Below, piece after piece: positions 36,470-52,415 of a stretch of DNA of 62,564 nucleotides. The notes below the pieces were generated by a model. It saw nothing but the letters and a program-made list of their open reading frames with translations, made no database searches and was not told the DNA's origin. This DNA is from Candidatus Dormiibacterota bacterium. GTDB lineage: Bacteria; Chloroflexota; Dormibacteria; Aeolococcales; Aeolococcaceae. The translations under genes and the position numbers were made by a program. Each line of letters starts with the position of its first letter. Position 1 is the stretch's first letter. The stretch covers positions 1 to 62,564 of the forward strand of contig DAISRJ010000006.1 in the NCBI GenBank assembly GCA_036828955.1, given 5' to 3'.

Positions 36470-36485
36470 CGGCATCGCCCGCCCG

Positions 36486-37568: not shown

Positions 37569-37597
37569 CCCAGCGCAGGGTTCGGGCGCGCTCCTGG

Positions 37598-37627
37598 TTG
37601 ACGAAATCCGCAGTCGGCGGTTACGCT
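37598..37627 (+). promoter_or_regulatory. Sigma-70-type promoter of the lysine operon
   Basis: TTGACG (37598..37603), 18-nt spacer, TACGCT (37622..37627). Confidence 0.6.
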
Positions 37628-37637
37628 GCGCAGCGCA

Positions 37638-37724
37638 ATGCAGATGTCCCCTGTCGCCCAGAAAGCGATGGCACCGTCGTTCCCCGCCGGGAAACCTGAC
37701 GTGCCGCGCGACGTCGCACGCTGA
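37638..37724 (+). CDS. Putative 28-aa attenuation leader peptide MQMSPVAQKAMAPSFPAGKPDVPRDVAR
   Basis: Short ORF between the promoter and terminator, with two AAA Lys codons (37662 and 37692). Below the ORF-track cutoff. Confidence 0.4.
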   Translation: MQMSPVAQKAMAPSFPAGKPDVPRDVAR

Positions 37725-37753
37725 CCGCAAGCTCAGCAAGCAACACCGAGCAC

Positions 37754-37788
37754 AAAGAGGATCCCCGCGGGGGTCCTCTTTTCTTTTT
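37754..37788 (+). terminator. Intrinsic terminator (attenuator) in the 5' leader of the lysine operon
   Basis: 12-bp stem AAAGAGGATCCC-CGCG-GGGGTCCTCTTT followed by TCTTTTT, 34 nt before the hcs ATG. Confidence 0.85.
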
Positions 37789-37822
37789 GCCCATCCACTT
37801 CCCCACATCGGACTGATTTCAA

Positions 37823-38950
37823 ATGCCCATTCCCCGGCTGGCCATCATCGAATCCACCCTCCGCGAGGGAGAACAGTTCGCCGCCGCCAACTTCACACCC
37901 GACCAGCGCCGCCAGATCGCGCACGCCGTCGACGATTTCGGCGTCGAGTACATCGAGGTCACCAGCCCGGTGGCCTCGCCGCAGGCTGCGCAGTCCTGCC
38001 GCGAGATTGCCGCGCTGCCCCTCAGCGCGACGGTGCTCACCCACACCCGCTGCGTCCCCGACGACGTTCGCCTCGCCATCGATTGCGGAGTCGGCGGTGT
38101 CGACCTGCTCTTCGGAACCTCGTCATGGCTGCGCACGCATTCCCACGGGCTCAGCGTCGACGAGATCGTCGAGGCGGCCGCGGTGTGCATCGAGCTCACC
38201 CGGGAGGCCGGTGTCGAGGTGCGCTTCAGCTGCGAGGACGCATTCCGCACCGACCCGGCCGACCTGCTGCGCATCCATCGCGCCGTCGCGGCTCTGGGCG
38301 TCGACCGCGTCGGCCTCGCCGACACCGTGGGGGTGGCCACGCCATCGCAGGTCGCGGCCCTCGTCGCCGAGGTCCGCGCCGCCGTCGACTGCGACATCGA
38401 GTTCCACGCCCACAATGACACCGGCTGTGCCGTCGCCAACGCCCTGGCCGCGCTCGAGGCCGGCGCCACGCACATCGACACGACGGTGCTCGGCATCGGC
38501 GAGCGCAACGGCATCGTGTCGCTGTCCGGGCTGGTGGCGCGTCTGCTCACCGTGCAACCCGGCCTGGTCGCCGGCTACCGCCTCGACCAGCTCACCGCCA
38601 TCGACCAGATGGTGGCGGGCATCATCGGGCTGGAGATTCCCTTCACGTCGCCGATCACAGCGCCATTCGCCTTCCACCACAAGGCGGGGATCCACACCAA
38701 CGCGGTGCTTCGAGATCCACGCACGTATGAGCCGTTCCCGCCTGAGCAGTTCGGCATCGAGCGCCGCGTGCTCGTCGCCCACCAGTTGGTGGGACGCCAC
38801 GCCCTGCGCGAGCGTGCCACCTCCCTGGGCATCGACGGCGATGAGGGCTGGCTGCTGCGCGTGACCGCCGAGGTCAAGCGCCACGCCGGTGAACGCCTCC
38901 TCTACGACGACGAGGTCGACGAGATGCTGCGCGCGTCGGCGGGGGCCTGA
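37823..38950 (+). CDS. hcs: Homocitrate synthase
   Basis: IIESTLREGEQF, YIEVTSP, LFGTS, RFSCED, GLADTVG, HAHND and HKAGIH motifs; closely follows the Thermus/fungal HCS pattern as I recall it. Confidence 0.92.
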   Translation: MPIPRLAIIESTLREGEQFAAANFTPDQRRQIAHAVDDFGVEYIEVTSPVASPQAAQSCREIAALPLSATVLTHTRCVPDDVRLAIDCGVGGVDLLFGTSSWLRTHSHGLSVDEIVEAAAVCIELTREAGVEVRFSCEDAFRTDPADLLRIHRAVAALGVDRVGLADTVGVATPSQVAALVAEVRAAVDCDIEFHAHNDTGCAVANALAALEAGATHIDTTVLGIGERNGIVSLSGLVARLLTVQPGLVAGYRLDQLTAIDQMVAGIIGLEIPFTSPITAPFAFHHKAGIHTNAVLRDPRTYEPFPPEQFGIERRVLVAHQLVGRHALRERATSLGIDGDEGWLLRVTAEVKRHAGERLLYDDEVDEMLRASAGA

Positions 38951-38954
38951 CGAC

Positions 38955-40190
38955 ATGGGAACGCTCGTCGAGGAGATCATCTCCAACCGCCTCGGCCGCC
39001 AGGTCGTCGCGGGTGACACCGTCGTCGCCCCCGTCGACTGCGCATTCGCCCACGACGTCACCGCGCCGCTCGCCATCGAGGCCTTCGAACGCATGGGCAT
39101 GCCGCTCCACGATCCCGGACGGGTCGTGCTCGTCTTCGACCACGTCATGCCGGCAGCCACCGTCGCCGCCGCCGAGCTGCACGTGCGCATCCGCCGTTTC
39201 GCGGCCGACCATGCCGTCCGCAACCTCTTCGCGGAGGGCATCTGCCACATCATCATGGTGGAGCGCGGCTACGCCCGCCCCGGCGGGATCGTGGTGGGCG
39301 CCGACTCGCACAGCACCACGTACGGGGCATTGGGCTGCTTCTCCACCGGCATGGGCAGCACCGATGTCGGCGTGATCCTGGCCACCGGGCGCACCTGGTT
39401 CCGGGTCCCGGAGACGTTGCGCATCGAGGTCGCCGGTGAGCTGGCAGCGCCACTCACCGCCAAGGATGTCGCGCTCCACGTGCTCGGTCGCATCGGCGGG
39501 GACGGCGCCGACTACATGGCCGTCGAGTGGGGTGGCGAGACCGTGGAACGGATGACGCTCGACCAGCGCCTGACCCTTGCCAACCTCAGCGCGGACATGG
39601 GCGGCAAGGCCGGGCTGTGCGAGGTCGACGACACCACCCTCGCCGGCAGCAGCCCGGTCGATGGGGTGCCCATCCCACGCCCGCGCTCACCGCACTACGC
39701 CGATGTCCTCCATGTCGATGTGAGCAACCTGCAGCCGCAGGTGGCCATGCCCCCGGCCGCGGACAACGTCCACGACATCGGCGACGTGGAGGGCACCCCG
39801 ATCGACGAGGTGTACATCGGCAGCTGCACCAACGGTCGCCTCGAGGACATGGAGGTGGTGGCCGGCTACCTCGCCGGGCGCACCGTCCACCCCAACACGC
39901 GAACGGTCGTGGTGCCGGCATCGCGGCGCATCTACACCGAGGCGCTGCGCCGCGGTTGGATCGAGACCATCATCGAGGCCGGCGCGCTGGTCATGAACCC
40001 CGGCTGCGGGCCCTGCCTGGGACGCCAGCACGGCGTCGTCGCCGCGGGCGAGCGCGTCGTCTCCACCAGCAACCGCAACTACCCCGGGCGCATGGGCAGC
40101 CCCGACGCGGAGATCTACCTGACCAGTCCTGCCGTGGCGGCCGCAACCGCCGTGGCGGGGCGCATCACCGACCCTCGGAGGCACCACTGA
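38955..40190 (+). CDS. lysT: Homoaconitase large subunit
   Basis: DSHSTTYG, GSCTNGR and GCGPCLG ([4Fe-4S] Cys), STSNRNYPGRMG; position in the lysine operon. Confidence 0.88.
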   Translation: MGTLVEEIISNRLGRQVVAGDTVVAPVDCAFAHDVTAPLAIEAFERMGMPLHDPGRVVLVFDHVMPAATVAAAELHVRIRRFAADHAVRNLFAEGICHIIMVERGYARPGGIVVGADSHSTTYGALGCFSTGMGSTDVGVILATGRTWFRVPETLRIEVAGELAAPLTAKDVALHVLGRIGGDGADYMAVEWGGETVERMTLDQRLTLANLSADMGGKAGLCEVDDTTLAGSSPVDGVPIPRPRSPHYADVLHVDVSNLQPQVAMPPAADNVHDIGDVEGTPIDEVYIGSCTNGRLEDMEVVAGYLAGRTVHPNTRTVVVPASRRIYTEALRRGWIETIIEAGALVMNPGCGPCLGRQHGVVAAGERVVSTSNRNYPGRMGSPDAEIYLTSPAVAAATAVAGRITDPRRHH

Positions 40191-40690
40191 TGGGACGCGC
40201 ATGGGTGCTCGGCGACGGCATCTCGACGGATGCCATCATGCCGGGGCGCTTCAACCTGACAACCGACCCGGACGCGCTGGCCAGGGCCTGCCTGTGCGAG
40301 GCGCGCCCCGAGTTCGCGGAGAACGTTCGGCCAGGTGACGTCATCGTGGCGGGGCGCAACTTCGGCTGCGGCTCCTCGCGCGAGCACGCCCCGGTGTCAA
40401 TCCGCGCCAACGGCGTCGTGGCCGTCGTGGCGGTGGGCTTCGCCCGGATCTTCGCGCGCAACGCCGTCAACATCGGCCTCCCGGTGATCCGCTGCGGCGA
40501 GGCCGTGGCGGCCATCGCCGACGGCGACGAGGTCGAGGTCGACACCCGCACCGGCACTGTGAGCAGCGCCGGCCGCACCTTCGCAGGCGAGCCGCCCAGC
40601 GCGCTGGCGATGCGCATCGCCGAGGCGGGTGGCCTCGTCGAGCTGGTCCGCGGCGCCGGCTGGGCCACCCTCGAAGAGGCGCCGGTGTGA
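40190..40690 (+). CDS. lysU: Homoaconitase small subunit
   Basis: ISTDAIMPGRF, AGRNFGCGSSREHA and FARIFARNAVNIG motifs. Confidence 0.88.
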   Translation: MGRAWVLGDGISTDAIMPGRFNLTTDPDALARACLCEARPEFAENVRPGDVIVAGRNFGCGSSREHAPVSIRANGVVAVVAVGFARIFARNAVNIGLPVIRCGEAVAAIADGDEVEVDTRTGTVSSAGRTFAGEPPSALAMRIAEAGGLVELVRGAGWATLEEAPV

Positions 40691-40857
40691 TGAGCGCCCA
40701 GTGCCCGGAATGCGAGGCCACCGTCCCATGCGACGACGACACCGTCGTCGGCGAGGTGGTGCCCTGCCCGGACTGCGGCGCCGACCTCGAGGTGAGTGCG
40801 CTGCGACCGCCCGTGCTCGTGCTCGCGCCTCCCGAGGAGGAGGACTGGGGTGAGTGA
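40690..40857 (+). CDS. lysW: Amino-group carrier protein LysW (55 aa)
   Basis: Translated by hand: MSAQCPECEATVPCDDDTVVGEVVPCPDCGADLEVSALRPPVLVLAPPEEEDWGE, with two CxxC and the terminal EDWGE. Missing from the ORF track. Confidence 0.97.
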   Translation: MSAQCPECEATVPCDDDTVVGEVVPCPDCGADLEVSALRPPVLVLAPPEEEDWGE

Positions 40858-41737
40858 GCCGCGCCTCGCCATGCTCGCCTCGCGGGTGCGCGTCGAGGAG
40901 AAGATGCTTCTCGATGCGTTCGCACGCCGCCACGTCGACGTGGAGCTGGTCGACGTGCGTCGCCTCCTGGTCGACACCCACCGCGCCGTGCCCGCCTGGG
41001 ACGCGGTCCTCGATCGCTCCCTGCAGCTGTCCCACGCGCTCGCCGCCCTGCGCCTGCTCGAGGACCGCGGCGTGGTCGCCGTCAACGCGCACGAGGTCGT
41101 CGTCAACTGCTCCGACAAGGTGGTGACCACGTCGCTGCTCAGCGCCGCCTGTGTCCCGGTGCCGCGCACCATCGTCGCCTTCTCCGTGGCCGGCGCCCTG
41201 GAGGCGATCGAAGCCGTGGGCTACCCCGCCGTGATCAAGCCGCCGGTGGGTTCGTGGGGCCGGCTCGTCGCCCGTGTCAACGACCGCGACGCCGCCGAGG
41301 CGCTCCTCGAGCACAAGGCGACCCTCGGTTCGGTGGCTCACCACGTCTTCTACGTCCAGGAGCACATCGCCAAGCCGGGTCGCGACATCCGTGTGTTCGT
41401 CGCCGGCAGCGAGGTGCTCTGCGCCATCGAGCGGGTGTCAGAGCACTGGGTGACCAACACCGCGCGAGGCGCGAGCACTCGCAACCGGCCGGTCAGCGCC
41501 GAGATCGCCGAGCTGTCGTTGCGCGCGGCTGTGGCCGTCGGCGGCGGTGTGCTCGCCGTCGACCTCCTCGAGGACGGGGAGCGCCTGCTGGTCAGCGAGG
41601 TCAACCACACCATGGAATTCCGCAACTCGGTCGATGTCACGGGTGTCGACATCGCCGGGCGCATCGTCGACCACTTCGTGGCCGCCGCTCGGCTGGGCGC
41701 CCCTCCAGCGCCGATGGCCCTGGCGGTGAACGCGTGA
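40850..41737 (+). CDS. lysX: Alpha-aminoadipate--LysW ligase (ATP-grasp)
   Basis: KPPVGSWGRL, YVQEHI, RDIRVFV, HWVTNTARG and EVNHTMEFRN motifs. Confidence 0.95.
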   Translation: MSEPRLAMLASRVRVEEKMLLDAFARRHVDVELVDVRRLLVDTHRAVPAWDAVLDRSLQLSHALAALRLLEDRGVVAVNAHEVVVNCSDKVVTTSLLSAACVPVPRTIVAFSVAGALEAIEAVGYPAVIKPPVGSWGRLVARVNDRDAAEALLEHKATLGSVAHHVFYVQEHIAKPGRDIRVFVAGSEVLCAIERVSEHWVTNTARGASTRNRPVSAEIAELSLRAAVAVGGGVLAVDLLEDGERLLVSEVNHTMEFRNSVDVTGVDIAGRIVDHFVAAARLGAPPAPMALAVNA

Positions 41738-42792
41738 GCGTGAGCCTCGCCGTCGGCACCGCGCTCGACCCCGCGGCCCTCCTCGACGACCTGCTCCGCA
41801 TCCCCTCGCCGACGGGCGCGGTCGACGCCGCCGCCGCCCGCGTCGCCGCCCTGGCGGGCGATGCGGGATTCGATGTCGCGCGCGACGCCGCCGGCAACGT
41901 CCGGATGACCTGGGGCGGCGGCGACCCGGCCGGCGCGGTCGTGCTGCTCGGCCACCTCGACACGGTGCCGGGAGACATCCCGGTGCGCCTTGCGGAGGGA
42001 CGCCTCCACGGCCGCGGCGCGGTGGACGCCAAGGGGCCGCTCGCAGCCGCCCTCGCCGCCACGTCGCGATTGGAGCGGCGAGCCGATCGGCCCGTGGTGG
42101 TCATCGCCGCCTGCGATGAGGAGGGGGCGTCGCTCGGCGCTCGCCACCTCCGCAACGGCGTCCCACCCGCAGCTCTGATCGTGCTCGAGCCGAGCGGCTG
42201 GGACACGATCACCACCGGCTACCGCGGCTGCGTCAGGCTGTCGGCGACCGTGACCCGTGGCGCGGCCCACCACGCCGGTCCCGAGGCCGGTGCCGCCGAC
42301 CGCCTGGTGGACGCGCTGGCCGCGCTGCGCAGCGACCTCGCCGGCACGGCGGGGCGCGCCGTCGACCGTGTCCAGGTGCGCGTCAACGCGCTCACCGTGG
42401 AAGGCGCGGGCGGCGTCGAGAGCGCCACCGCGGGCATCGAGCTACGCATCCCCCTCGGCGCCGCCGTCGACGACGTCCTGGGCAGCGCCGCGGCGCTGCT
42501 GGGAGACGCCACCATCGCGGTCCACAGCTCATGCGAGGCGGTCGCGGTGTCGCGGAGCAACCCCGCGGTGCGCGCCCTGGCCCGTGCCATCAGCGCGTCC
42601 GGCGGGCGCCCGCGCTACACGACCAAGACGGGAACGTCCGACCTCAACGTCGTGCTCCCGGCTTGGCAGTGCCCGGCCGCGGTGTACGGGCCGGGCGACT
42701 GCGCCCTCGACCACACCCCCCGCGAATCCATCGACATCGCCGAGCTGCGGACGGGCACGGACGTGCTCGAGGCCGCGCTGCGAGCGCTGTGA
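41734..42792 (+). CDS. lysK: LysW-lysine hydrolase (M20 carboxypeptidase)
   Basis: GHLDTVPG, GRGAVDAKG, DEEG, EPSG, TSDLN and DHTPRE motifs. Confidence 0.92.
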   Translation: MSVSLAVGTALDPAALLDDLLRIPSPTGAVDAAAARVAALAGDAGFDVARDAAGNVRMTWGGGDPAGAVVLLGHLDTVPGDIPVRLAEGRLHGRGAVDAKGPLAAALAATSRLERRADRPVVVIAACDEEGASLGARHLRNGVPPAALIVLEPSGWDTITTGYRGCVRLSATVTRGAAHHAGPEAGAADRLVDALAALRSDLAGTAGRAVDRVQVRVNALTVEGAGGVESATAGIELRIPLGAAVDDVLGSAAALLGDATIAVHSSCEAVAVSRSNPAVRALARAISASGGRPRYTTKTGTSDLNVVLPAWQCPAAVYGPGDCALDHTPRESIDIAELRTGTDVLEAALRAL

Positions 42793-43850
42793 TGATCAAC
42801 GCCGCACCGAGTCGCCTCCGGGTCGCTGTCGTGGGCGCCGCCGGGTACACGGGGGGTGAGCTGCTCCGCCTGCTCGTCGCACACCGCGGCGTCGACGTGG
42901 TCGCGGCGACGAGCGAGCGTCTCGCCGGCCACTACGTGCACCACACGCACCCGGTGCTTCGCGGGCGCTCGTCACTGCGTTTCACAACCCGGAGCGCCCT
43001 GCCGGGGTGCGACGCGGTCTTCGCGGCGCTCCCCCACGGCGACTCGGAGGCGATCATCGACGAGCTCCGCGGCCACGCCCCGGTGGTGGTGGACCTCTCC
43101 GCCGACTTCCGGCTGCGCGACCGCGGCGATTACCAGCGCTGGTATGGAAGACAGCACGCCCGACCCGAGCTTCTCGACACCGCTGTGTACGCGCTCCCCG
43201 AGATCGACAGGCCGCGCATCCGCAACGCCGACCTGCTTGCCACCGGTGGATGCGTCGCCACCGCCGCGATCCTCGCCCTGCTGCCGCTGGCGGCCGCCGG
43301 GGTGGTCGACACGAGCCGGCCGCTGATCGTCGACGCCAAGGTGGGGTCCTCGGCGGCGGGCGCGCAGCCGAGCAGCTCGTCGCATCATCCCCACCGCAGC
43401 GGCGCAATGCGTTCGTTCGCGCCCACCGGTCATCGCCACACAGCGGAGATCGTCCAGGAGACGGGGCTCGACAACGTGGCCCTCTCGGTGACCGCGGTCG
43501 AGGCCGTACGCGGTGTGCTCGTGACCGCGCATGTCCCGCTCGCCGACGCCGGCGTCGACGACCGCGCGCTGCGCGCCATCTTCCGCGACCGCTACCTCGC
43601 CGAGCCCTTCGTGCGGGTCATCACCGAGACACGCGGGATCCATCGCTACCCCGAGCCCAAGCTCCTCGCCGGCACCAACTTCTGCGATGTCGGCTTTGAG
43701 CGCGATCCCCACGGCGCGCGCGTGGTGGTCATGGCGGCGATCGACAACCTCGGCAAGGGCAGCGCGGCGCAGGCGGTGCACGCGCTCAACGTCCGCGCCG
43801 GCCTCGACGAATGCGCGGGGCTGGACTTTGCGGGGCTGTACCCCACATGA
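42792..43850 (+). CDS. lysY: LysW-aminoadipyl-phosphate reductase (ArgC family)
   Basis: GAAGYTGGEL, DLSADFRL, GC (catalytic Cys), HRHTAEI and IDNLGKGSA motifs. Confidence 0.93.
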   Translation: MINAAPSRLRVAVVGAAGYTGGELLRLLVAHRGVDVVAATSERLAGHYVHHTHPVLRGRSSLRFTTRSALPGCDAVFAALPHGDSEAIIDELRGHAPVVVDLSADFRLRDRGDYQRWYGRQHARPELLDTAVYALPEIDRPRIRNADLLATGGCVATAAILALLPLAAAGVVDTSRPLIVDAKVGSSAAGAQPSSSSHHPHRSGAMRSFAPTGHRHTAEIVQETGLDNVALSVTAVEAVRGVLVTAHVPLADAGVDDRALRAIFRDRYLAEPFVRVITETRGIHRYPEPKLLAGTNFCDVGFERDPHGARVVVMAAIDNLGKGSAAQAVHALNVRAGLDECAGLDFAGLYPT

Positions 43851-44671
43851 CCCGCGCTCCCCTGGTGGTCAAGATCGGCGGCAGCCTCACGGATCCCTCC
43901 GGTCTTCTCGACGACATCGCCGCCTTCGGCGCGCCACTGATCGTCGTCCACGGCGCCCACCGCATCCTCGACGACCTGGCGGTGCGGCTCGGCACTCCTC
44001 CCCGTTTCGTCACCTCGGTCGCGGGCGCGACCAGCAGGTACACCGACGACGCCGCCATGGACCAGTTCCTGATGGCCTATTGCGGCCAGGCCAACAAGCG
44101 CCTCGTCGAGCAGCTGCTCTGGCGCGGCGTGGCGCCCGTGGGACTGGCGGCGATGGACGGCGGCATGGTGCGCGGCCGGCGTCGCGCCGACCTCCGCGTC
44201 CGCGAGGATGGCCGGACGCTGGTGCTCCACGGCGACCACACCGGCAGCATCGAGCAGGTCGACACCACGCTGCTGCACACACTGCTGCAGGGCGGCTTGC
44301 TGCCCGTGCTGTGCCCGCCGGCGCTCGGTCACGATGGCACCCCGATCAACGTCGACGGCGACCGTCTCGCCGCCGAGGTGGCCATTGCGATGGGCGCCGA
44401 GCGGCTGGTCATCGCCTCCGACACCGCCGGCTTTCTCGCCGACGCGGCCGACCCGTCGAGCACCGTGGACCGTGCCTGCGCGGACGACCTGGCCGGGCTG
44501 GCCGGGTCGGCGCAGGGCCGCGCCCGCGTCAAGCTCACCGCCGTGGGGCGGGCGCTGTCCGGCGGGGTGGGCTCGGTGGGGCTCTGCGACGGTCGCGGCG
44601 CCCACCCACTCCAGGCGGCTCTCGCCGGTGCGGGCAGCTGGTTCACGCGGTCGGCCGTGGTGGCCGTGTGA
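43847..44671 (+). CDS. lysZ: LysW-aminoadipate kinase (ArgB family)
   Basis: VVKIGG, VHGA, SRYTD and INVDGDR motifs. Confidence 0.93.
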   Translation: MTRAPLVVKIGGSLTDPSGLLDDIAAFGAPLIVVHGAHRILDDLAVRLGTPPRFVTSVAGATSRYTDDAAMDQFLMAYCGQANKRLVEQLLWRGVAPVGLAAMDGGMVRGRRRADLRVREDGRTLVLHGDHTGSIEQVDTTLLHTLLQGGLLPVLCPPALGHDGTPINVDGDRLAAEVAIAMGAERLVIASDTAGFLADAADPSSTVDRACADDLAGLAGSAQGRARVKLTAVGRALSGGVGSVGLCDGRGAHPLQAALAGAGSWFTRSAVVAV

Positions 44672-45855
44672 TGGCGGCATCCACCGTCCCCACCGTCGGC
44701 GGCGGTGCGCTGCGTCCGATGTCGCTGCATGCCGGCCGCGGCATCAGCCTGGTGAGCGGCCACGGCTCGACCCTGGTCGACGCGACCGGGCGCGAGTACA
44801 TCGACCTGGTCAGCAACTACGGCGTCAACGTGCTCGGCCACGCTCACTCCGCGGTCACGGCGGCGATCACCGAACAGGCGGCACTGCTGCCGAGCGCGCA
44901 TCAGTCGTTCGGGAGCCCGGTGCGCGATGCGTTCGTCGCGGCGCTCGGCGCCATGCTGCCGCGAAAGCTGACCCAGGTGTGCTTCGTCAACTCGGGCAGC
45001 GAGGCTCTCGAGGTGGCCATCAAGCTGGCCCGTGTGGCCACCGGGCGCACGCGGATCATCGCCATGCACCGCGGCTACCACGGCCGCACCCTCGGCGCCC
45101 TGAGCCTCACATCGGCGGCCGCGTACCGTGACCCGTTCACCCCGCTGCTCCCCGGCGTCGTCCACGTCCCGTACGACGACCTCACTGCGCTGGAAGAGGC
45201 CCTCGAGGGGCGCGTCGCCGCCGTCGTGGTGGAGCCCATCCAGGGCGAGGCCGGGGTGCGCGTCCCTCACCACGGGTACCTGCGCGGCGTGCGCGAGCTC
45301 TGCAGCGCGGCCGGCGCGCTCCTCGTCACCGACGAGGTGCAGACGGGCTTCCGCACCGGGGCGTTCCTGGCCGCCGACCAGGACGGCGTGGTGCCCGACA
45401 TCCTCTGCCTGGGCAAGGGCATCGCCAACGGACTGCCGATGGCGGTCACGGTCTGCACCGAGGCGGTCGGGGCGAGCATGCCGCGGGGCGGGCACGGCAG
45501 CACCTTCGCCGGCAGTCCGCTGGTCTGTGCCGCCGGGGCGGCCACGGTGGGCCTGCTCGCCGACCCGGCCCTGAGCGCCCGCGTCCGCGCCAGCGGGGCT
45601 GTGGCGATGGAACGCCTCGCCGTGCTGCCCGGGGCGATCGTCCGCGAGGTGCGCGGGAGGGGTCTGATGATCGGCATCGACCTGCGCGCGCCGGCCGCCC
45701 CGCTCATCGCGGAGGCGCAGAGGCGCGGCGTCCTGGTGCTCGGGGCAGGGCGCACCGTGATCAGGCTCCTGCCCCCGTTGGTCATCGATGAGGTCACCCT
45801 GGCGACGGCGCTGGACTGCCTGGCTGAGATCATCGAGGGCGCCGCCGCGGCCTGA
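44671..45855 (+). CDS. lysJ: LysW-aminoadipate semialdehyde aminotransferase (ArgD family)
   Basis: NSGSEALE, GYHGRT, EPIQGEAG, DEVQTG and LGKG motifs; last gene of the operon. Confidence 0.92.
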   Translation: MAASTVPTVGGGALRPMSLHAGRGISLVSGHGSTLVDATGREYIDLVSNYGVNVLGHAHSAVTAAITEQAALLPSAHQSFGSPVRDAFVAALGAMLPRKLTQVCFVNSGSEALEVAIKLARVATGRTRIIAMHRGYHGRTLGALSLTSAAAYRDPFTPLLPGVVHVPYDDLTALEEALEGRVAAVVVEPIQGEAGVRVPHHGYLRGVRELCSAAGALLVTDEVQTGFRTGAFLAADQDGVVPDILCLGKGIANGLPMAVTVCTEAVGASMPRGGHGSTFAGSPLVCAAGAATVGLLADPALSARVRASGAVAMERLAVLPGAIVREVRGRGLMIGIDLRAPAAPLIAEAQRRGVLVLGAGRTVIRLLPPLVIDEVTLATALDCLAEIIEGAAAA

Positions 45856-45954
45856 TCCAGCGCATGCGTCCGTCGCGGCCGATCCCGGGTTTCCAAGCAG
45901 ACTCACAGCTTCGCGTCAGGAGTCCGTAAGGCGATCACGGCTACGCTCTCAGCC

Positions 45955-46254
45955 ATGCGGCAGTCATCGTCGGCCGACCGTGACCGCGCCCAACGGCGTG
46001 TCCGTTCGATAACGGTGAGGTCCGCCGTGGCCGCCGGGGCGCTGACGCTTGTCGGTGCCGCCGTGACCGCCGGGACCTTCGCGGGGCGAACCGTCGGCGT
46101 CAATCAATCGATCCAAACGTCGCCAACGCCGGACCCCAACACCGGTCTTCTCCCACCGCTGCAGGCGCCCGGTGACGGGTCCGGCTTTGGTGGTGGCGGC
46201 GGCGGCGGCGGCAACGTGTCGGCCGGCCCTCCTGTCGTCTCCGGGGGGTCGTAA
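45955..46254 (+). CDS. Small membrane-anchored or exported protein ending in VSGGS (putative flavinylation substrate)
   Basis: Basic N-terminus, one hydrophobic helix, Pro/Gly linker and terminal SGGS; stop is 3 nt before the apbE start. Confidence 0.75.
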   Translation: MRQSSSADRDRAQRRVRSITVRSAVAAGALTLVGAAVTAGTFAGRTVGVNQSIQTSPTPDPNTGLLPPLQAPGDGSGFGGGGGGGGNVSAGPPVVSGGS

Positions 46255-46257
46255 CCC

Positions 46258-47181
46258 GTGTTCAGCACAGGGTGGCGCGCCCTGGGAACCACGGTCGTGG
46301 TCGCGGTGACCGACGCCGACGCCCTCGAGGCGGCACGTGACGCGGTTGCCGTCGAGGTCGACGCCCTGGACCGGGCCTGCAGCCGCTTCCGCGACGACTC
46401 CGACCTGACCCGCCTCAACGAAGCCGGCGGGCTCCCCGTGGTCGTGAGCCCGCTCCTCGCAGAGGCGATCCGCGTGGCGCTGCGCGCCGCCCGGCTCACT
46501 GACGGCGACGTCGATCCCACGGTCGGCGGGGCCCTGGAGGCGATCGGCTACGACGTCGACTTCTCGGCCATCGAGCCGGACCGCGCGGACTTCGCCCTCA
46601 AGCACCGGGCAGCCCCGGGGTGGACCAACGTCGTGATCACCGACCTGCCTGCCGTGGTCACCCTGCCTGCGGGGACCGTCCTCGACCTCGGCGCCACCGC
46701 CAAGGCCCTCGGGGCCGACCGCGCCGCCCGCGCCGCTCATGCCGCCACCGCCACCGGCGTGCTCGTCAGCCTGGGGGGCGACATCGCGACAGCGGGACGG
46801 CCACCTGTGGGCGGCTGGCCCGTCCGGGTCACCGATGACCACGCCGCCCATCTCGAGGCGCCGGGCCAGTCGATCACAGTGCACAGCGGAGGCCTGGCGA
46901 CCTCCACAACCACGCTGCGTCGCTGGCAGCGGGGTGGCCTGCCCGTGCACCACATCGTCGATCCCCGCACGGGCGCGCCCGCAGACTCGCCCTACCGCAC
47001 CATCAGCGTCGCCGCCGCCAGCTGTGTCGACGCCAACACGGCGAGCACCGCGGCGATCGTGCGCGGCCGGAGCGGCGCCGACTGGTTGGAGTCAACCGGC
47101 CTGCCCTCGCGGCTGGTGACCCACGATGGCGTGGTCGTGCACCTCAACCGCTGGCCGGTCGCGGCGGAGCTGGCGGCGTGA
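46258..47181 (+). CDS. apbE: FAD:protein FMN transferase (flavin transferase)
   Basis: ALGTTV, SRFRDDSDL, DPTVG, DLGATAKA, SLGGDIA, LATS, HHIVDPRTG and DANTAST motifs. Confidence 0.93.
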   Translation: MFSTGWRALGTTVVVAVTDADALEAARDAVAVEVDALDRACSRFRDDSDLTRLNEAGGLPVVVSPLLAEAIRVALRAARLTDGDVDPTVGGALEAIGYDVDFSAIEPDRADFALKHRAAPGWTNVVITDLPAVVTLPAGTVLDLGATAKALGADRAARAAHAATATGVLVSLGGDIATAGRPPVGGWPVRVTDDHAAHLEAPGQSITVHSGGLATSTTTLRRWQRGGLPVHHIVDPRTGAPADSPYRTISVAAASCVDANTASTAAIVRGRSGADWLESTGLPSRLVTHDGVVVHLNRWPVAAELAA

Positions 47182-48206
47182 TCGCGGCCTCCGGGCCCAC
47201 CGCACTCTGGTACACGGCGCGCAGCACCGGGTACGTGAGCCTGCTGCTGCTCACCGCCATCCTGGTCCTGGGAATCATCACCGCCATGCGCGTGGACAGC
47301 CGGGAGTGGCCGCGCTTCCTGAGCCAGGCGGTGCACCGCAACCTGTCCCTGCTGGTGCTCGTCTTCCTGGCCATCCACATCCTCACCTCGATCATCGACC
47401 CCTTCGCGGGGATCGCGGCGCTCAACACGGTGGTCCCGTTCACCGGCTCGTACCGACCCATCTGGCTGGGGCTTGGCGTGCTCTCGGTGGAACTGATGGT
47501 GGCCTTGACGGTCACCAGCCTCCTGCGTCACCGCATCGGTTTCCGGCTGTGGCGGGTCATCCACTGGGCCGCGTACGCGGCCTGGCCCCTGGCCCTGGTG
47601 CACACCCTCGGCACGGGCAGCGATGTCCGTTCGGCATGGGCGCTCGTCTTGACCCTCGGTTGCGTCGGCGCTGTGGTGTTCACGCTCGTGTGGCGGCTGA
47701 CCAGCGACCGCGCTGCCATGCCGCTGGCGGTCCGCGGGCTCGCCCTGGTGGCCACCGCCGTGACCACCGTCGCCCTTGCCGGCTTCGCGGCCGCCGGGCC
47801 GCTCCACACTGGCTGGGCCAAGTCGGCGGGCACGCCCGGCCGGCTGCTGGTCGCCAACGGCTCCGCCTCACCGGCGGCAACGCCGACACCCGCCCCGGTA
47901 CCCGCGCTGGCGACCAACCTCCGCGATCCCTTGACGGGCACCGTCGTGCAGAACGGTCGCACCGTCCAGGTCGACCTCAGCGATACAGCCAACGCCACGC
48001 TGAAGATGGCCGTCGCCGTCCGCGGCGAGGCGACCAGCGGCCGCCTGGTCATCACCGAGGGCGGGGTCACCGTCTGTGACACGACGGCGTCGGTCGTGCA
48101 GGACGTCGTGGCCACATGCGGGCGCACCTCTGTCGACATCAGCCTGGGCCAGCAGCCTGACGGCTCGATCACGGGTCAGCTCGTGACCGGCGTGGCCGCT
48201 CCGTGA
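47178..48206 (+). CDS. Ferric-reductase-like (MsrQ-like) heme b membrane protein with C-terminal extracytoplasmic extension
   Basis: LWY.ARSTG, HRNL, H (IHIL), WRVIHW.AY..W..ALVH (heme His residues); GWAKSAG then a Pro-rich linker. Confidence 0.88.
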   Translation: MIAASGPTALWYTARSTGYVSLLLLTAILVLGIITAMRVDSREWPRFLSQAVHRNLSLLVLVFLAIHILTSIIDPFAGIAALNTVVPFTGSYRPIWLGLGVLSVELMVALTVTSLLRHRIGFRLWRVIHWAAYAAWPLALVHTLGTGSDVRSAWALVLTLGCVGAVVFTLVWRLTSDRAAMPLAVRGLALVATAVTTVALAGFAAAGPLHTGWAKSAGTPGRLLVANGSASPAATPTPAPVPALATNLRDPLTGTVVQNGRTVQVDLSDTANATLKMAVAVRGEATSGRLVITEGGVTVCDTTASVVQDVVATCGRTSVDISLGQQPDGSITGQLVTGVAAP

Positions 48207-49459
48207 TCGCCCCGGCGGAGACGCTGCGCCTCCTCGACGGCCCGCTGCCGGCAGACGGCGCCGAGTCCCTGCAGTCGCACCTCGCCCGCCTCGGCCCGCG
48301 ACCATCCCACAGCGGCGGCGCGTTCATCGATATCGTCGACCGGGCCGGACTGCGGGGGCGGGGCGGCGCCGGCTTCCCCACCGCGACCAAGTGGGCGGCG
48401 ACGCGCGACCGGTCGCGTGGCAACGCCATCGTGGTCGCCAACGGAGCCGAGACCGAGCCGATGAGTGCCAAGGACCGGGCGCTCATGACCACCCGCCCAC
48501 ACCTGGTCCTCGACGGCCTGCTCCTCGCCGCCGAGGCCGTGGCCGCCAAGCGCGCCGTCGTCTACATCTCCAGGGCGCACGACGACGCGGCGGCGGCCGT
48601 GACCGCGGCCATCGACGAGCGCCGCGCGGCCAGGGACCTCCCTGTGCCGATCACGCTGGCACGAGCCCCGCACCGCTATGTCGCCGGTGAGGAGTCGGCG
48701 GCGATCGCCCACCTCAACGGGGGCGCGGCGCGGCCGACCATGGTGCCGCCGCGTCCGTTCGAACGAGGGGTGGACGGGAGGCCGACCGTCGTCAACAACG
48801 TCGAGACGCTCGCCCACGCGGCACTCATCGCCCGCCACGGTCCCGAGATGTATCAGCGCCTGGGAGCCGATGGGGCCACCGGCACGGTGCTGGTCACGAT
48901 GGCGTCGGCCGTCCACAGCCCCGGTGTCCACGAGCTGCCCGGGGGCTCCACCGTGGCCCAGGCGATCGGCGCCGCCGGCGGGGCCACCGCCTCGGTGGCT
49001 GCGGTGCTGGTCGGCGGCTACTTCGGTCGATGGGTCGCCGCTGAGGACGCCTGGGACCTGCGTCTGGGCATCGACGTGCCCCTCGGAGCCGGGGTCATCG
49101 CGGTGTTTCCACACGGCCGCTGCGGGGTCACCCAGACGGCTGCACTGATGGGTTTCCTGGCACGGGAGAGCGCCCGCCAGTGCGGACCGTGCGAGCATGG
49201 ACTGGCCGCCCTCGCGGGGACCACCGCTGAGCTGGCGGCCGGGAGGGCGAAGCCGCGCGACGCCGACCGCCTCAACCGCTGGATCGAACAGATCGCCGGG
49301 CGCGGCGCCTGCCACCACCCCGACGGCGCCCTCGCGCTCCTCGCCAGCGGGCTGCGCGTCTTTGCCGGCGACGTGTCGACCCACCTTCGTCGGGGCCGCT
49401 GCGACCGCGACCCCGCGCTGCTGCTGCCCGCGCCGGATTGGACGGGGAGGCGCGGATGA
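48203..49459 (+). CDS. NuoF-like FMN/NADH-binding Fe-S protein
   Basis: LRGRGGAGFP, NGAETEP...KD, YVAGEESA, NNVETLA, GGYFG, ESARQCGPC and GACHHPDG motifs. Confidence 0.9.
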   Translation: MIAPAETLRLLDGPLPADGAESLQSHLARLGPRPSHSGGAFIDIVDRAGLRGRGGAGFPTATKWAATRDRSRGNAIVVANGAETEPMSAKDRALMTTRPHLVLDGLLLAAEAVAAKRAVVYISRAHDDAAAAVTAAIDERRAARDLPVPITLARAPHRYVAGEESAAIAHLNGGAARPTMVPPRPFERGVDGRPTVVNNVETLAHAALIARHGPEMYQRLGADGATGTVLVTMASAVHSPGVHELPGGSTVAQAIGAAGGATASVAAVLVGGYFGRWVAAEDAWDLRLGIDVPLGAGVIAVFPHGRCGVTQTAALMGFLARESARQCGPCEHGLAALAGTTAELAAGRAKPRDADRLNRWIEQIAGRGACHHPDGALALLASGLRVFAGDVSTHLRRGRCDRDPALLLPAPDWTGRRG

Positions 49460-49668
49460 TCCGCCTGCGGGTCAACCCCATCCGTTGCGACGGTTTCGGC
49501 ATGTGCGCCGAGCTGCTCCCGGAACGGCTCACCCTCGATGACTGGGGCTACCCCATCGTGGACGGACGGCCGCTCAGCCCCGAGCTGGTCGCACTGGCGC
49601 GGCGTGCCGTGGCCGCGTGCCCGACCGCGGCACTTCGTCTCGCCGAGGAGGCTGAGCCTCACCGCTGA
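49456..49668 (+). CDS. Ferredoxin (actinobacterial 3Fe-4S/4Fe-4S type)
   Basis: C-D-G-F-G-M-C...DDWGYP...ACPTAAL. Confidence 0.9.
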   Translation: MIRLRVNPIRCDGFGMCAELLPERLTLDDWGYPIVDGRPLSPELVALARRAVAACPTAALRLAEEAEPHR

Positions 49669-49681
49669 GGTCGGAGCCGGT

Positions 49682-52288
49682 TCAGCTTCTCGTCGGGGTC
49701 GTGGCGGCCTTGCCGAGGATGCCGTCGACCATGGCCAGGAACTCGGTGACCTTGGCGGGTTTGGTGAGGTAGGCGACCGCGCCCGCGGCGAGCAGGCGCT
49801 GGACCTCGCGTTCGGTGGCGTCGGCGCTGTACATGACGACCGGTATGGCGGCCGTGCGCGGATCGGCGCGCAGGCGACCGATCACCTCGGCGCCGTCGAG
49901 GTCGGGGAGGTGGAGGTCGAGAACGATGAGCTCCGGGAGATGCTCGCGCGCCAGCTCCACGGCAATGCTGCCCTGCATGGCGGTGAGAAGGCGGATGGTC
50001 GGGCGCAGAGCGAACACGGACTCCACGAGTGCGATCGTGGCGAGGTTGTCCTCGACGACCAGGACGGTGTGCTCGGCGACGGCGTCCGCCAGCACCGAGG
50101 GCGCCCTGGCCGGGACGACCAGGGGCCTGTCGGTGCCCGTCGCCTGCTGAAGGCGCACCGTGAACGCGGCCCCCTCGCCGCGCACGCTGCGGGCCTCGAG
50201 GCTGCCGCCCATGCCCACGGCGAGCTGCCGCGACAGCGCCAGCCCGAGGCCTGTTCCCGGGACGTGGCCGCGCTCCGCGCCGAGCCGCTCGAACGGCTGG
50301 AAGAGACGCGCGGCGTAACCCTCCTCGAGGCCGGGGCCGTCGTCGATGACGTCGATGTCGACGAAGCCATCCCGGGCAGCGGCGCCGACGATGACGTGCC
50401 CGCCCTCCGCGCCGTACTTGATGGCGTTGCTGAGCAGGTTCAGGAGCACCTGGACGAGGCGCTGGCGGTCGGCGCGCACGTAGATGTCGCCGGAGCCGTC
50501 GAGGCGGGTGGTGATTGTCACGCGGCGGGCGGCGGCCGCGTGCCCGACCAGGCCGACGCACTCCTCGAGGACGGAGCTGACGTCGACCGGCTGCAGAGAG
50601 AGCGACTCCCGGCCGGCATCGATGCGGGCGATGTCCAGGACGTCGTTGACCATTCCCAGGAGGTGTGCGCCGGCGCGCTGGATGGCGTCGATGGCCACCA
50701 TCTGGTCCTCACGCGGAGCGCGCATCTCGAGCAGGTCGCTGAAGCCGAGCATCGCCGCCAGCGGAGTGCGCAGCTCATGGCTCATCCGAGACAGGTACTG
50801 GCTCTTGGCATTGCTGGCCAGCTCCGCGGCGTCTCGAGCGCGGCGAAGCTCGTCGGCCACGCGGTTCTCGTCGCTGATGTCGCGGTTGATCTCCAGCACC
50901 GTGACGGGCGCCCCGTTCGCATCCCGGCGCAGGGCCCAGCGGGCGCTGATGGGGAGCGTGCGCCCGTCCTTGGTCCGCTGGACCAGCTTGCCCTCCCAGT
51001 GGTCGTTCCTCAGGAGGTCGGTCAGGATCAGGTCGACCGGGACGGGATATTGCGTGTGGAGCAGGTCCTGCGCGTCGGACCCGAGGGCTTCGGCCGCGCT
51101 GAATCCGTAGAGCTCGGACGCGGCCTTGTTCCAGTACTGGTTTTGGCGAGAGGCGAAGTCCCAGCTGAAGATGGCGTCGTGGGCGAGGTCGAGCAGCTCG
51201 GCGTTGCGGCGCACCCCACCCACCAGGTGGACGCGGTCCAGTGCGACCGTGATCGACGCCGCGTACTGGCTGAGCCTGGCCAGCTCCTCATCCCCGAACA
51301 GCGGGGTGAACGGACCGCCGAGCACGGCCAGGTACCCGGTGCCGGCCTCGGAATGGATCGGCGCCACGGCGATCGTCCCCAGCGAAGTGTTGAACGCAAG
51401 GCCCGGCGACTCGGTGATGCCGTCGATGTCGATGTGGAGTTGACCGACGGCAGCGGCTGCGATGCCCGACGCCGCGAGAACCCGACCGTCGAGCGCGATC
51501 AGCGCCCCCGCGCCGCCGAGAAGGCGGGCCGCCCACTCCGACGCGCGCTCGGCGAGAGTCGCTTCATCAGGGGAGTACAGCAGCAGCTGGCTGATGGCCA
51601 GACGCAGCTGCACCTCCTCGCGTTCGCGCCAGATGCGACGCAGCCAGACCGGCGGCGAAAGAGCAATCCCCAGCAGGGGAATGCTCACCAGGACGACGCT
51701 GTCGATGGCGAGGTCAGCCGCTGTGCCGGACGCAGCCACGGCGGCCACGCCGGCACCGAGGAGGGCCAGCACGATCCCGGTGAACCCCGCGTTCAGCGCG
51801 CGAAGCCGGGCGCGCTGCACGGAGGGCAACGCGCCCGACACCCGCCACAGCTTCACGATCGACTCGCCCACCACGGCGCACCACGCCAGGACGAGGATGA
51901 GGTCGGCGGTGAGGGCGAGGTGAACCGGGCGCGACGTCGCTTCGCCGAGGTTGGCGACGATGGCGGCGGCCGTGGCCAGGATCACGGCGCCTGTCCACAG
52001 TCCAAGGGCGCGGCGCCCGACCGTGATCAGGCTGTGACGGAAGAGGAGAAACGCGTACGCCGACCCCATGAGCAGCGCGAGGCTGATCACCGTGACCGGC
52101 ATCCACGCGGTGCCCGCGGCCTTGGTGACCTGCCCGAGAACCGCGAGGAGCCCGAAGAGTCCGACCGCGAGCGCCAGGTACAGGCGGCTGCGTCCGCGGT
52201 GCCGCAACCAGGAGACGAGGGTGAGCAGACCAAGCATCGCGAGCCCGGCTGACACCGCCCATTGCAGTACCGCGAGTGCCTGGGTCAC
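49682..52288 (-). CDS. Hybrid sensor histidine kinase (multi-TM sensor, GAF-like, PAS, HisKA, HATPase, receiver)
   Basis: SHELRTPL H-box, N/G1/F/G2 boxes, PAS (YWNKAAS.LYG...W.G) and receiver (VEDN, LDLHLPD, KP). Start inferred at GTG 52288. Confidence 0.92.
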   Translation of the reverse strand: MTQALAVLQWAVSAGLAMLGLLTLVSWLRHRGRSRLYLALAVGLFGLLAVLGQVTKAAGTAWMPVTVISLALLMGSAYAFLLFRHSLITVGRRALGLWTGAVILATAAAIVANLGEATSRPVHLALTADLILVLAWCAVVGESIVKLWRVSGALPSVQRARLRALNAGFTGIVLALLGAGVAAVAASGTAADLAIDSVVLVSIPLLGIALSPPVWLRRIWREREEVQLRLAISQLLLYSPDEATLAERASEWAARLLGGAGALIALDGRVLAASGIAAAAVGQLHIDIDGITESPGLAFNTSLGTIAVAPIHSEAGTGYLAVLGGPFTPLFGDEELARLSQYAASITVALDRVHLVGGVRRNAELLDLAHDAIFSWDFASRQNQYWNKAASELYGFSAAEALGSDAQDLLHTQYPVPVDLILTDLLRNDHWEGKLVQRTKDGRTLPISARWALRRDANGAPVTVLEINRDISDENRVADELRRARDAAELASNAKSQYLSRMSHELRTPLAAMLGFSDLLEMRAPREDQMVAIDAIQRAGAHLLGMVNDVLDIARIDAGRESLSLQPVDVSSVLEECVGLVGHAAAARRVTITTRLDGSGDIYVRADRQRLVQVLLNLLSNAIKYGAEGGHVIVGAAARDGFVDIDVIDDGPGLEEGYAARLFQPFERLGAERGHVPGTGLGLALSRQLAVGMGGSLEARSVRGEGAAFTVRLQQATGTDRPLVVPARAPSVLADAVAEHTVLVVEDNLATIALVESVFALRPTIRLLTAMQGSIAVELAREHLPELIVLDLHLPDLDGAEVIGRLRADPRTAAIPVVMYSADATEREVQRLLAAGAVAYLTKPAKVTEFLAMVDGILGKAATTPTRS

Positions 52289-52415
52289 AGGCCGAGTATG
52301 ACGACGGTGTTCCACAGTGAATGCCGGCTGTTTCCGTTCCGCCACCGCCGTCGATTGCGGACGTCGACGCAGGCCGGTGGTCCGCGGCCACACCTGCGGG
52401 GAGACAATCATCCCG

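Follow-up and report, generated by a model that had tools for sequence, protein, structure and literature searches.

A short tethered peptide ending in S-G-G-S, a probable minimal substrate of ApbE, in an MsrQ-like electron-transfer operon of Dormibacterota

MsrQ-like apbE clusters are known from comparative genomics, and a NuoF-like (PF10589) electron donor has been found in 31 of 1797 clusters (PMC8238504). This NuoF-like MsrQ-like system has never been characterised experimentally (PMC8238504). Here we describe such a cluster in a window of 62,564 nucleotides (nt) from a Candidatus Dormiibacterota bacterium (GenBank assembly GCA_036828955.1, contig DAISRJ010000006.1, positions 1 to 62,564; "the window" denotes this whole stretch, and coordinates without a locus label refer to it). 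The gene of a 99-residue peptide, pep, is followed there by genes for ApbE (the FAD:protein FMN transferase; FAD, flavin adenine dinucleotide; FMN, flavin mononucleotide), a ferric-reductase-type membrane protein (Fre), a NuoF-like flavoprotein and a ferredoxin (Fdx). A PF01794 membrane protein inside an apbE cluster, the mark of an MsrQ-like system, is present in the window. With the NuoF-like subtype of these systems the locus shares the combination of a PF01794 cytochrome with apbE and a proposed route by which electrons of cytosolic NAD(P)H reach an extracytosolic flavin (PMC8238504). The type of system is already known; the peptide family is not previously described in the literature that we searched. 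We propose that the peptide is probably a minimal, disordered flavin carrier that replaces the usual FMN-binding domain, and thereby a probable new class of ApbE substrate. If true, it supplies the missing flavinylated partner of the NuoF-like MsrQ-like subtype.

The natural ApbE substrates in the literature considered are folded domains or extensions (FMN_bind, NqrB/RnfD, DUF2271, DUF3570, Flavodoxin_4 and FMN_red). An MsrQ fused to FMN-bind1 resembles the present system in that a bis-heme MsrQ-type domain leads to a flavinylated element on the outside (PMC11334425, Fig. 5B). However, the flavin of that protein sits in a folded, fused domain of ~120 residues (PMC11334425), whereas the motif discussed here lies on a separate disordered peptide. 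FMN reductases with an unstructured C-terminal extension have been shown experimentally to be flavinylated by their cognate ApbE, and they too carry the acceptor Ser/Thr in a disordered C-terminal stretch (PMC11334425). Their FMN folds back into the enzyme's own pocket (PMC11334425), whereas the peptide has no folded domain and any pocket must come from a partner. The synthetic Flavin-tag (Tong et al.; PMC12052999; PMC9400968) is alike in that a short terminal linear motif suffices. ApbE recognises D-x-x-[S/T]-G-A-[S/T], of which the last Ser/Thr is the acceptor; the enzyme needs no more than seven residues in a linear motif at a protein terminus, and terminal tags work best (PMC12052999). The Flavin-tag keeps D-x-x-S-G-A-T (F1 = GVDGLSGATLTS), whereas the natural tip P-[VI]-[VT]-S-G-G-S has no Asp, Gly for Ala, Ser as the acceptor and nothing after it. 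Changing the motif Asp to Ala had only minor effects in the fumarate reductase of K. pneumoniae, Asp being nearly dispensable and Ser accepted (PMC12052999). A change of Ala to Val leaves about 50% flavinylation, and no effect of Ala to Gly is reported in the ApbE-motif literature considered (PMC12052999).

Five co-directional open reading frames (ORFs) lie on the + strand between 45955 and 49668, each where an earlier note on this DNA had placed it. These are pep (45955-46254; 99 aa; no Pfam/NCBIfam family), apbE (46258-47181; 307 aa; PF02424, E 5e-51), fre (47178-48206; PF01794 Ferric_reduct, E 5e-8), the gene of the NuoF-like flavoprotein (48203-49459; Complex1_51K, SLBB and NADH_4Fe-4S) and that of the ferredoxin (49456-49668; Fer4_15). 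The longest ORF of the ferredoxin begins with TTG at 49438; its likely start is the ATG at 49456, because GGGAGG stands 6 nt upstream and this start creates the ATGA overlap. The junctions read, in order, TAA-CCC-GTG between pep and apbE (a 3-nt gap) and then GTGA, GTGA and ATGA overlaps, apbE and fre sharing 4 nt. That these operon features are real seems to us practically beyond doubt. The earlier note had described a tightly coupled five-gene operon of a peptide, ApbE, a ferric-reductase-like heme membrane protein, a NuoF-like protein and a ferredoxin, and both the arrangement and the Pfam matches bear this out. Its claim that no FMN-binding domain is encoded also stands: Pfam and NCBIfam, searched to E <= 0.1, reveal neither FMN_bind (PF04205) nor another flavinylated domain in the five proteins, and DUF2271, DUF3570 and NqrB-type domains are absent from all five.

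The main evidence for the proposed role is the end of the peptide. In the window, residues 93-99 read P-V-V-S-G-G-S-COOH (46231-46251, + strand), which we put forward as the ApbE flavinylation site, with Ser99 as the candidate acceptor. Profile hidden Markov model searches of 1.84e9 representative proteins returned 26 matches, and 100 with a broader profile. The 50 close homologues (90-104 aa) all end in P-[VI]-[VT]-[ST]-G-[GS]-S; distant members span 90-214 aa, and the family diverges below 30% identity. Across the 113 full-length members only the anchor, the motif LQxPxQxP and the last residues P-[VI]-[VT]-S-G-G-S-COOH are conserved, and the tip is the most conserved feature of the family: [ST]G[GAS][ST] ends 124 of the 132 sequences collected. 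Counted over the 113 members, the last residue (position 0) is Ser in 103 and Thr in 10, position -1 is Gly in 105, Ser in 4 and Ala in 4, position -2 is Gly in every one, position -3 is Ser in 101 and Thr in 12, and position -6 is mostly Pro (80) or His (14). Set beside the ApbE motif, the peptide thus has Ser/Thr at 0 and -3 and an invariant Gly at -2 and lacks the Asp at -6; positions 0 and -3 alternate only between S and T, and position -1 only among G, A and S. The codons of SGGS vary synonymously (GGC/GGG/GGA/GGT; TCC/TCG/TCA), are mostly GGC-GGC and do not resemble a Shine-Dalgarno sequence. Because of this synonymous variation, the constraint on the tip acts on the protein and not on the DNA. 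We also considered a flavinylation site elsewhere in the module, and a motif scan of the other four proteins disposed of it: [ST]G[AGS][ST] occurs nowhere in ApbE, Fre, the NuoF-like protein or the ferredoxin, which leaves the peptide tip as the only candidate ApbE site of the module.

In the window and in most of 13 Dormibacterota loci the genes stand in the order pep-ApbE-Fre-NuoF-Fdx, and all 13 species-level genome matches to the peptide are Dormibacterota. The nearest public locus (L001) belongs to the Candidatus Dormibacterota metagenome-assembled genome palsa_875 and is 94-97% identical protein by protein. At a Fre identity of 46-49%, one locus (L014) has a 106-aa ORF ending ...PVIVSGGS and then ApbE-Fre-NuoF-Fdx. 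Remote peptide homologues have ApbE directly next to them in four loci (L018, L019, L022, L023) and the full module in two more (L021, L024); on one JGI contig a remote homologue stands alone, with ApbE 5 kb off. The peptide is not peculiar to this window, being a member of a large multi-lineage family, a point absent from the earlier note. Every family member that carries a name is a "hypothetical protein"; the family lacks a Pfam or NCBIfam model, and our literature searches on the tip sequence, on disordered ApbE substrates and on actinobacterial flavinylated systems returned no description of it. Members are frequent in metagenomes of soil and peat; Dormibacterota are among the lineages represented and, judging by neighbouring genes, so probably are actinobacterial ones.

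A sample that does not depend on the peptide comes from metagenome contigs scanned with the Fre alignment, which gave 57 loci with at least 330 nt upstream. The upstream ORF ends in [ST]G[GAS][ST]-COOH in 47 of these (ApbE adjacent in 29). Three further loci have the motif followed by one or two residues (SGGTSL, SGGTGF, SGGTGW; ApbE adjacent in none), five have a homologous anchor with the tip CH(S/G)TPxHPC (ApbE adjacent in all five), and two have neither tip (ApbE adjacent in none). A random ORF would end in the tip motif with a chance of ~1e-3, against which 50 of 57 loci indicate that the peptide is integral to the Fre/NuoF-like/Fdx module. We regard it as highly probable that the peptide is a dedicated part of this module. 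The earlier note had proposed, as a test of its reading, that the C-terminal (S/T)G(G/A)S should be conserved in small ORFs upstream of homologous apbE genes. This test, set before the search, held up: the motif ends 124 of 132 family members and stands upstream in 47+3 of 57 Fre-sampled loci, far more than chance would give. One family member (L025:1794-2099) ends in VVSGGSR, abuts a phage-type integrase on the other strand and has no Fre or ApbE nearby; a mobile element seems to have disrupted the module there.

The family plan of the peptide is simple: a basic N-region (R-D-x-A-L-x-R-L/V-R), a helix running to F-[AP]-G-[RKH], L-Q-x-P-x-Q-x-P, a variable tether rich in Pro, Ala, Glu and Ser, and the tip [VIA]-[VTS]-S-G-G-S as the very last residues. 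In an AF2 model built from a 34-sequence alignment, one helix spans residues 6-40 and is followed by low-confidence coil, which fits an anchor plus a disordered tail. The basic N-region of the window's peptide comprises residues 8-20 (DRDRAQRRVRSIT; 45976-46014, + strand) and follows a pattern, R-D-x-A-x-R-R-V/L-R, found family-wide. Mean net charge is +3.6 on the N-flank of the hydrophobic segment and +1.2 on the C-flank, N exceeding C in 98 of 113 members. The basic N-region is accordingly predicted from the residues to be cytoplasmic and the peptide to be oriented N-in/C-out. Residues 19-44 (46009-46086, + strand) form a moderately hydrophobic helix with the end A-G-T / F-A-G-R, which either anchors the peptide in the membrane or is the h-region of a signal peptide. 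Over the family, the most hydrophobic stretch of 19 residues has a mean hydropathy of 1.74, and in 82 of 92 members A-x-[TAS] stands directly before F-[AP]-G-[RKH]. Two Arg precede the h-region in 95 of 113 members, and the hydropathy of that region and the basic residue after it are compatible with twin-arginine (Tat) export without being diagnostic. A canonical Tat signal was rejected, as the TatP-type pattern RR-x-[FGAVML]-[LITMVF] fits only 8 of 113 members.

Beyond the anchor, the tether is simply of low complexity. Its one conserved element is the mid-tether motif L-Q-x-P-x-Q-x-P, represented here by GLLPPLQAP (residues 64-72; 46144-46170, + strand), in which L65, P68, Q70 and P72 are invariant in one family alignment. 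The form 'LQPPAQAP' recurs in distant members, and this motif is the sole part of the tail with a raised model confidence (pLDDT). It is possibly a docking element. The earlier note had also singled out a Gly8 run as a feature of the tether, and this did not survive comparison: the run is not conserved, the 94%-identical L001 having Gly4. It is encoded by a GGT/GGC trinucleotide repeat (46186-46212), which in L001 is shorter and interrupted; its length is probably unstable through slippage and the run not functional in itself. Another side finding is a JGI protein of 124 aa (P0049) in which the first 43 residues of the peptide run into a membrane-protein segment of PF03631; faulty assembly or gene calling probably produced this chimera. 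Readings of the peptide as Pup-like, as a precursor of a ribosomally synthesized and post-translationally modified peptide (RiPP) or as a carrier of a sortase/exosortase sorting signal were set aside, as the cluster has none of the partner enzymes or motif positions that these would need.

The partners of the peptide are those expected of a transmembrane electron carrier. Fre is, by its residues and fold, predicted to be a bis-heme ferric-reductase-domain protein of the MsrQ/NOX/STEAP type. His53, His67, His129 and His142, on helices 2 and 4, are invariant in 111 and in 47 homologues. Its AF2 model (pLDDT 77) has six transmembrane helices and an eight-stranded beta domain, and Foldseek pairs the membrane part best with STEAP1, SpNOX and STEAP2 (probability 0.95-1.00, E ~0.02). 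With NOX, STEAP and SpNOX it shares two His pairs on two helices, spaced 14 and 13 residues, a spacing that we take to be the NOX pattern. It differs from them in having no fused FAD/NADPH dehydrogenase, the donor being a separate NuoF-like protein plus ferredoxin, and in an extra helix at the seventh position that carries the beta domain outside. That domain (residues 249-339; 47922-48194, + strand) is eight-stranded with invariant Cys300 and Cys314, and it is assigned to the extracytoplasmic side because the charges of the Fre loops obey the positive-inside rule in that orientation, with which the two Cys agree. We examined whether it might be a cryptic or split FMN_bind and rejected the idea: FMN_bind was found neither by Pfam (22 members, E <= 10) nor by a PDB profile search nor among the best Foldseek matches, and profiles and structures hinted at no more than a weak Ig-like or beta-barrel resemblance. 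Some lineages lack the domain (L021).

Compared with Nqo1 of T. thermophilus, the NuoF-like protein keeps the Gly-rich flavin/NADH loops (GLRGRGGAGFPT). Its cluster motif has changed: ESCGKCTPCREG of Nqo1 becomes ESARQCGPCEHG, the first Cys of C-x2-C-x2-C (the N3 [4Fe-4S] motif) being replaced by Ala in the orthologues as well. It scores 218 bits against a cut-off of 559 bits for the NuoF equivalog, and this low score together with the missing N3 Cys makes it NuoF-like rather than NuoF. At residues ~323-334 and 366-376 (ESARQCGPCEHG...GRGACHHPDGA) three Cys are left, with two His beside the last. The ferredoxin, for its part, has three Cys only (CxxxxxC...CP), and from this pattern it is probably of the [3Fe-4S] type.

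From these parts we consider it reasonably likely that the operon encodes a self-contained system for exporting electrons, of the MsrQ-like type associated with flavinylation. NAD(P)H would be oxidised by the cytoplasmic NuoF-like flavoprotein, and the electrons would travel via the Fe-S cluster of this protein and the 3-Cys ferredoxin to Fre, first to its inner heme (His53/His129) and then to its outer heme (His67/His142); this order of carriers is the one that the motifs suggest. The peptide would be held in the membrane by its basic N-region and hydrophobic helix, N-in/C-out, with a flexible tail of ~55 residues. ApbE would move FMN from FAD onto the terminal Ser, so that the tip would be a natural "flavin tag", and the tethered FMN may then be reduced at the outer face of Fre, by way of its conserved outer loops and/or the beta domain. 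The acceptor of the FMN tip would be encoded or found outside the cluster, with Fe(III), humic or quinone compounds, O2 or an envelope protein as candidates. If true, this would be a minimal natural flavoprotein, made of no more than anchor, disordered tether and a tip of seven residues, and the natural counterpart of the Flavin-tag.

Food for thought is on which side of the membrane the flavin is attached. The ApbE domain begins at residue 9, with neither a signal peptide nor a lipobox, and the frame upstream is closed by the TAA of the peptide gene, the sole in-frame codon before the GTG start being CCC. The enzyme aligns to TM1553, 4xdt and other solved ApbEs and retains the Ser/His/Asp region (ATS...HHIVDP...D-A-N), whose residues have described roles in the active site (PMC12052999). 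Since it has no signal peptide, the ApbE of this module is probably cytoplasmic, as far as its N-terminus can tell, and for lack of an export signal on the enzyme FMN would most likely be attached in the cytoplasm. There FAD is available, and the short unfolded tail might then be exported post-translationally. The cytosolic ApbE of K. pneumoniae is comparable in having no signal peptide and in flavinylating in the cytoplasm, but its substrate, a soluble fumarate reductase, stays there (PMC12052999), while the acceptor discussed here is predicted to be outside. The system raises the question of whether a cofactor loaded in the cytoplasm can afterwards be exported with the unfolded tail that bears it. 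Stop-codon read-through that would fuse peptide and ApbE was also considered and rejected: the two share a frame in the window, but in L004, L005, L014, L021 and L022 they overlap or lie in other frames, and ApbE is missing from that place in four loci. The survey of MsrQ-like systems kept only ApbE and FMN-bind genes with a signal peptide or lipobox (PMC8238504). The ApbE described here has neither, although the peptide does have an N-terminal hydrophobic segment, and the signal-less NuoF-like subtype was probably under-counted. With no Pfam or NCBIfam model for the peptide and a signal-less ApbE, the module would be overlooked by surveys based on domains and signal peptides.

That the terminal tip is flavinylated and works on the outer side is the explanation that we favour, with moderate confidence, and several observations weigh against it. 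Asp is found at position -6 in none of the 113 members, and Gly replaces the motif Ala at -1 in 105. The acceptor Ser is predicted to be extracytoplasmic while ApbE is signal-less, the ApbE orthologues examined in this module are equally so, and export of an already modified tail must for this reason be assumed. No terminal electron acceptor is encoded among the neighbouring genes. ApbE lies between peptide and Fre in 29 of 50 loci, and 21 have no adjacent apbE. In addition, pep directly precedes fre without apbE in two Dormibacterota loci (L006, L009), an uncalled 98-aa ORF ending ...PVTISGGS is followed by Fre-NuoF-Fdx without adjacent apbE in L016 (Fre again 46-49% identical), and the same three genes follow the peptide without ApbE in L020. 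The peptide is tied more tightly to Fre than to ApbE, which is a frequent and not a universal member. Conversely, five sister loci keep ApbE though their peptide tip is CH(S/G)TPxHPC and not SGGS, a caution against equating every pairing of ApbE and peptide with a flavinylation pair. Alternatively, the peptide may be a dedicated subunit of Fre/NuoF-like/Fdx with a tip that is not flavinylated and serves in docking, as a plug, as a regulatory element or for another modification, the substrate of ApbE, where the enzyme is present, being encoded elsewhere. We judge this alternative rather unlikely. The stronger link to Fre (50/57) than to ApbE (29/50), the non-canonical tip, the conflict between a signal-less ApbE and an outside tip, and the homologues that combine CH(S/G)TPxHPC with ApbE are all in its favour, as is an OmpR-type two-component system that is often adjacent and sometimes co-oriented with the peptide. 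However, the tip does match the ApbE core S/T-G-x-S/T, with substitutions confined at exactly the positions that matter, and no other ApbE substrate is present in any cluster examined. The three loci in which one or two residues follow the motif imply that the motif is selected and not a free C-terminus. Canonical MsrQ-like systems, moreover, place their flavinylated partner at this point (PMC8238504, PMC11334425).

The conflict over sidedness would disappear if the tail were cytoplasmic and the FMN tip a swinging arm between the NuoF-like protein and ferredoxin and the inner heme of Fre. ApbE, the NuoF-like protein and the ferredoxin all lack export signals, a modified tail would not need to be exported, and actinobacterial-type members are rich in Lys, Arg and His after the hydrophobic segment (mean net charge over the first 30 residues, +2.25 in non-Dormibacterota members). 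We nevertheless find such an arm improbable. The N-flank is the more positive one in 98 of 113 members, which predicts N-in and C-out, and an N-out peptide would carry four or five Arg across the membrane. The FMN and Fe-S clusters of NuoF already give the conversion between two- and one-electron steps on the cytoplasmic side, the flavinylated domain of related fused systems is extracytosolic (PMC11334425, Fig. 5B legend), and the length of the tether co-varies with the outward-facing beta domain of Fre. The N-terminal segment could also be a cleaved signal peptide, which would release a free, secreted flavopeptide of ~55 aa (FAGR...VVSGGS-FMN) as a diffusible shuttle. Small residues at -3/-1 (A-x-[TAS]) before F-[AP]-G-[RKH] in 82 of 92 members and an h-region of only moderate hydrophobicity (mean 1.74) are what one would expect from this, but the conserved cytoplasmic R-D-x-A-x-R-R-V/L-R and the polar residues of the helix are unusual for a disposable signal peptide, and the nearby basic residue and conserved FPG would suit the end of a transmembrane helix just as well. 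We give cleavage little credence. Finally, the ORF or its ending might be an artefact, either a chance ORF, as abound in GC-rich genomes (the window is ~70% G+C), or GGNGG kept as a ribosome-binding site of apbE, whose start is 4-15 nt from the motif. Against chance, the G+C content at third codon positions (GC3) is highest in pep's own frame of the three, third positions vary in 39 of 40 columns among 12 orthologues while positions 1 and 2 vary in 13 of 40, and homologues occur in distant lineages; GC3 and the variability by codon position rule a chance ORF out. As for a ribosome-binding site, synonymous variation affects the Gly codons, most of which read GGC-GGC, unlike a Shine-Dalgarno sequence. 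The motif is kept, moreover, where the next gene is fre, lies 78-111 nt off or is on the other strand, hence also where no co-oriented gene follows. An artefact of either kind is thus extremely improbable, and a tethered, flavinylated tip on the outer side is the reading that we retain.

Another question regards the length of the tether. Among L001-L105, both genes could be parsed in 37 loci; the tether measures 44-79 residues where Fre has the beta domain (31 loci) and 104-145 where it does not (6 loci), a difference with a Mann-Whitney p of 1.4e-4 that is uncorrected for shared ancestry. More speculatively, the peptides might be "redox fishing lines", in which an anchor and a disordered tether of 45-145 residues carry a sole functional group at the tip. 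The line would perhaps be short where Fre has its beta domain and long and rich in Pro, Glu and Ala where it has none; its tip would usually be FMN on SGGS and, in the sister group, the Cys/His motif CH(S/G)TPxHPC. Loading FMN in the cytoplasm before export could conceivably spare a supply of FAD outside, and the tip, once reduced at the outer heme, might swing or diffuse to distant acceptors. This reading is tentative and more doubtful than not. If true, it would describe a natural domain-free flavoprotein and a new route for electrons across the cell wall. The family lives in soil and peat, where extracellular electron transfer to iron and humic substances matters.

The sister loci just mentioned (L036:53-610, L038:1385-1780, L054:1904-2551, L062:1913-2563 and L064:2151-2570, with L037:2-172 partial) consist of ApbE-Fre-NuoF-Fdx with a CH(S/G)TPxHPC-tipped peptide. 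Their peptides have the same N-terminal anchor (..RDxALRRV..WT..), a poly-Pro tether and an internal [AS]SG[WIGT]x site, and they are preceded by a second small ORF with a Gly/Asp-rich tail. CH(S/G)TPxHPC could be an alternative, metal- or thiol-based redox tip, and the sister group suggests a family of tethers with exchangeable redox tips. A small exported protein with a redox-capable C-terminal motif in a DsbD-partnered apbE cluster parallels these peptides, to go by its description.

Upstream of pep, a -10-like hexamer of the form TANNNT (TACGCT; 45942-45947, + strand) stands 7 nt before the ATG, and there is no Shine-Dalgarno sequence. A TANNNT 6-8 nt before the start codon, again with no Shine-Dalgarno sequence, recurs in all 14 Dormibacterota-type loci. 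Across L001-L014 the elements upstream of pep (45895-45954 in the window) come in a conserved order: GACTCACAG, GTCAGGA, CCGTAAGG and then TANNNT. Scans of this region for the sigma-70 consensus and for terminators gave no match, and an Rfam scan returned nothing relevant. To judge by its elements, the region resembles a promoter combined with an operator, serving a leaderless transcript. The earlier note had called the operon leaderless; the spacing of the hexamer in the 14 loci speaks for this, and, as sequence alone is no proof, a leaderless pep transcript is best described as plausible.

Outside Dormibacterota (L016, L020-L024 and one JGI contig), the module is almost always adjoined by an OmpR-type response regulator and a HAMP/HisKA histidine kinase, and in L023 and L024 the co-oriented kinase ends 15-45 nt before the peptide gene. 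A membrane protein of ~225 aa lies directly upstream of the peptide in L021 (4319-4993), as does a 236-aa gene in the JGI contig of P0225. The L021 protein has weak matches to DUF4405 and cytochrome b561 (E 3e-3 and 8e-3); DUF4405 is a class of flavinylation-associated cytochromes. Back in the window, the preceding operon (36279-45855) ends 99 nt before pep and resembles a LysW-type (alpha-aminoadipate) lysine pathway, with a homoisocitrate/isopropylmalate-type dehydrogenase, a homocitrate synthase, an aconitase-family protein and a LysX-type ATP-grasp protein; it also holds an amino-acid kinase-like ORF and a class-III aminotransferase. Downstream of the ferredoxin gene follow a hybrid PAS histidine kinase (49682-52411, minus strand, convergent), a methyltransferase, Lgt and DnaE.

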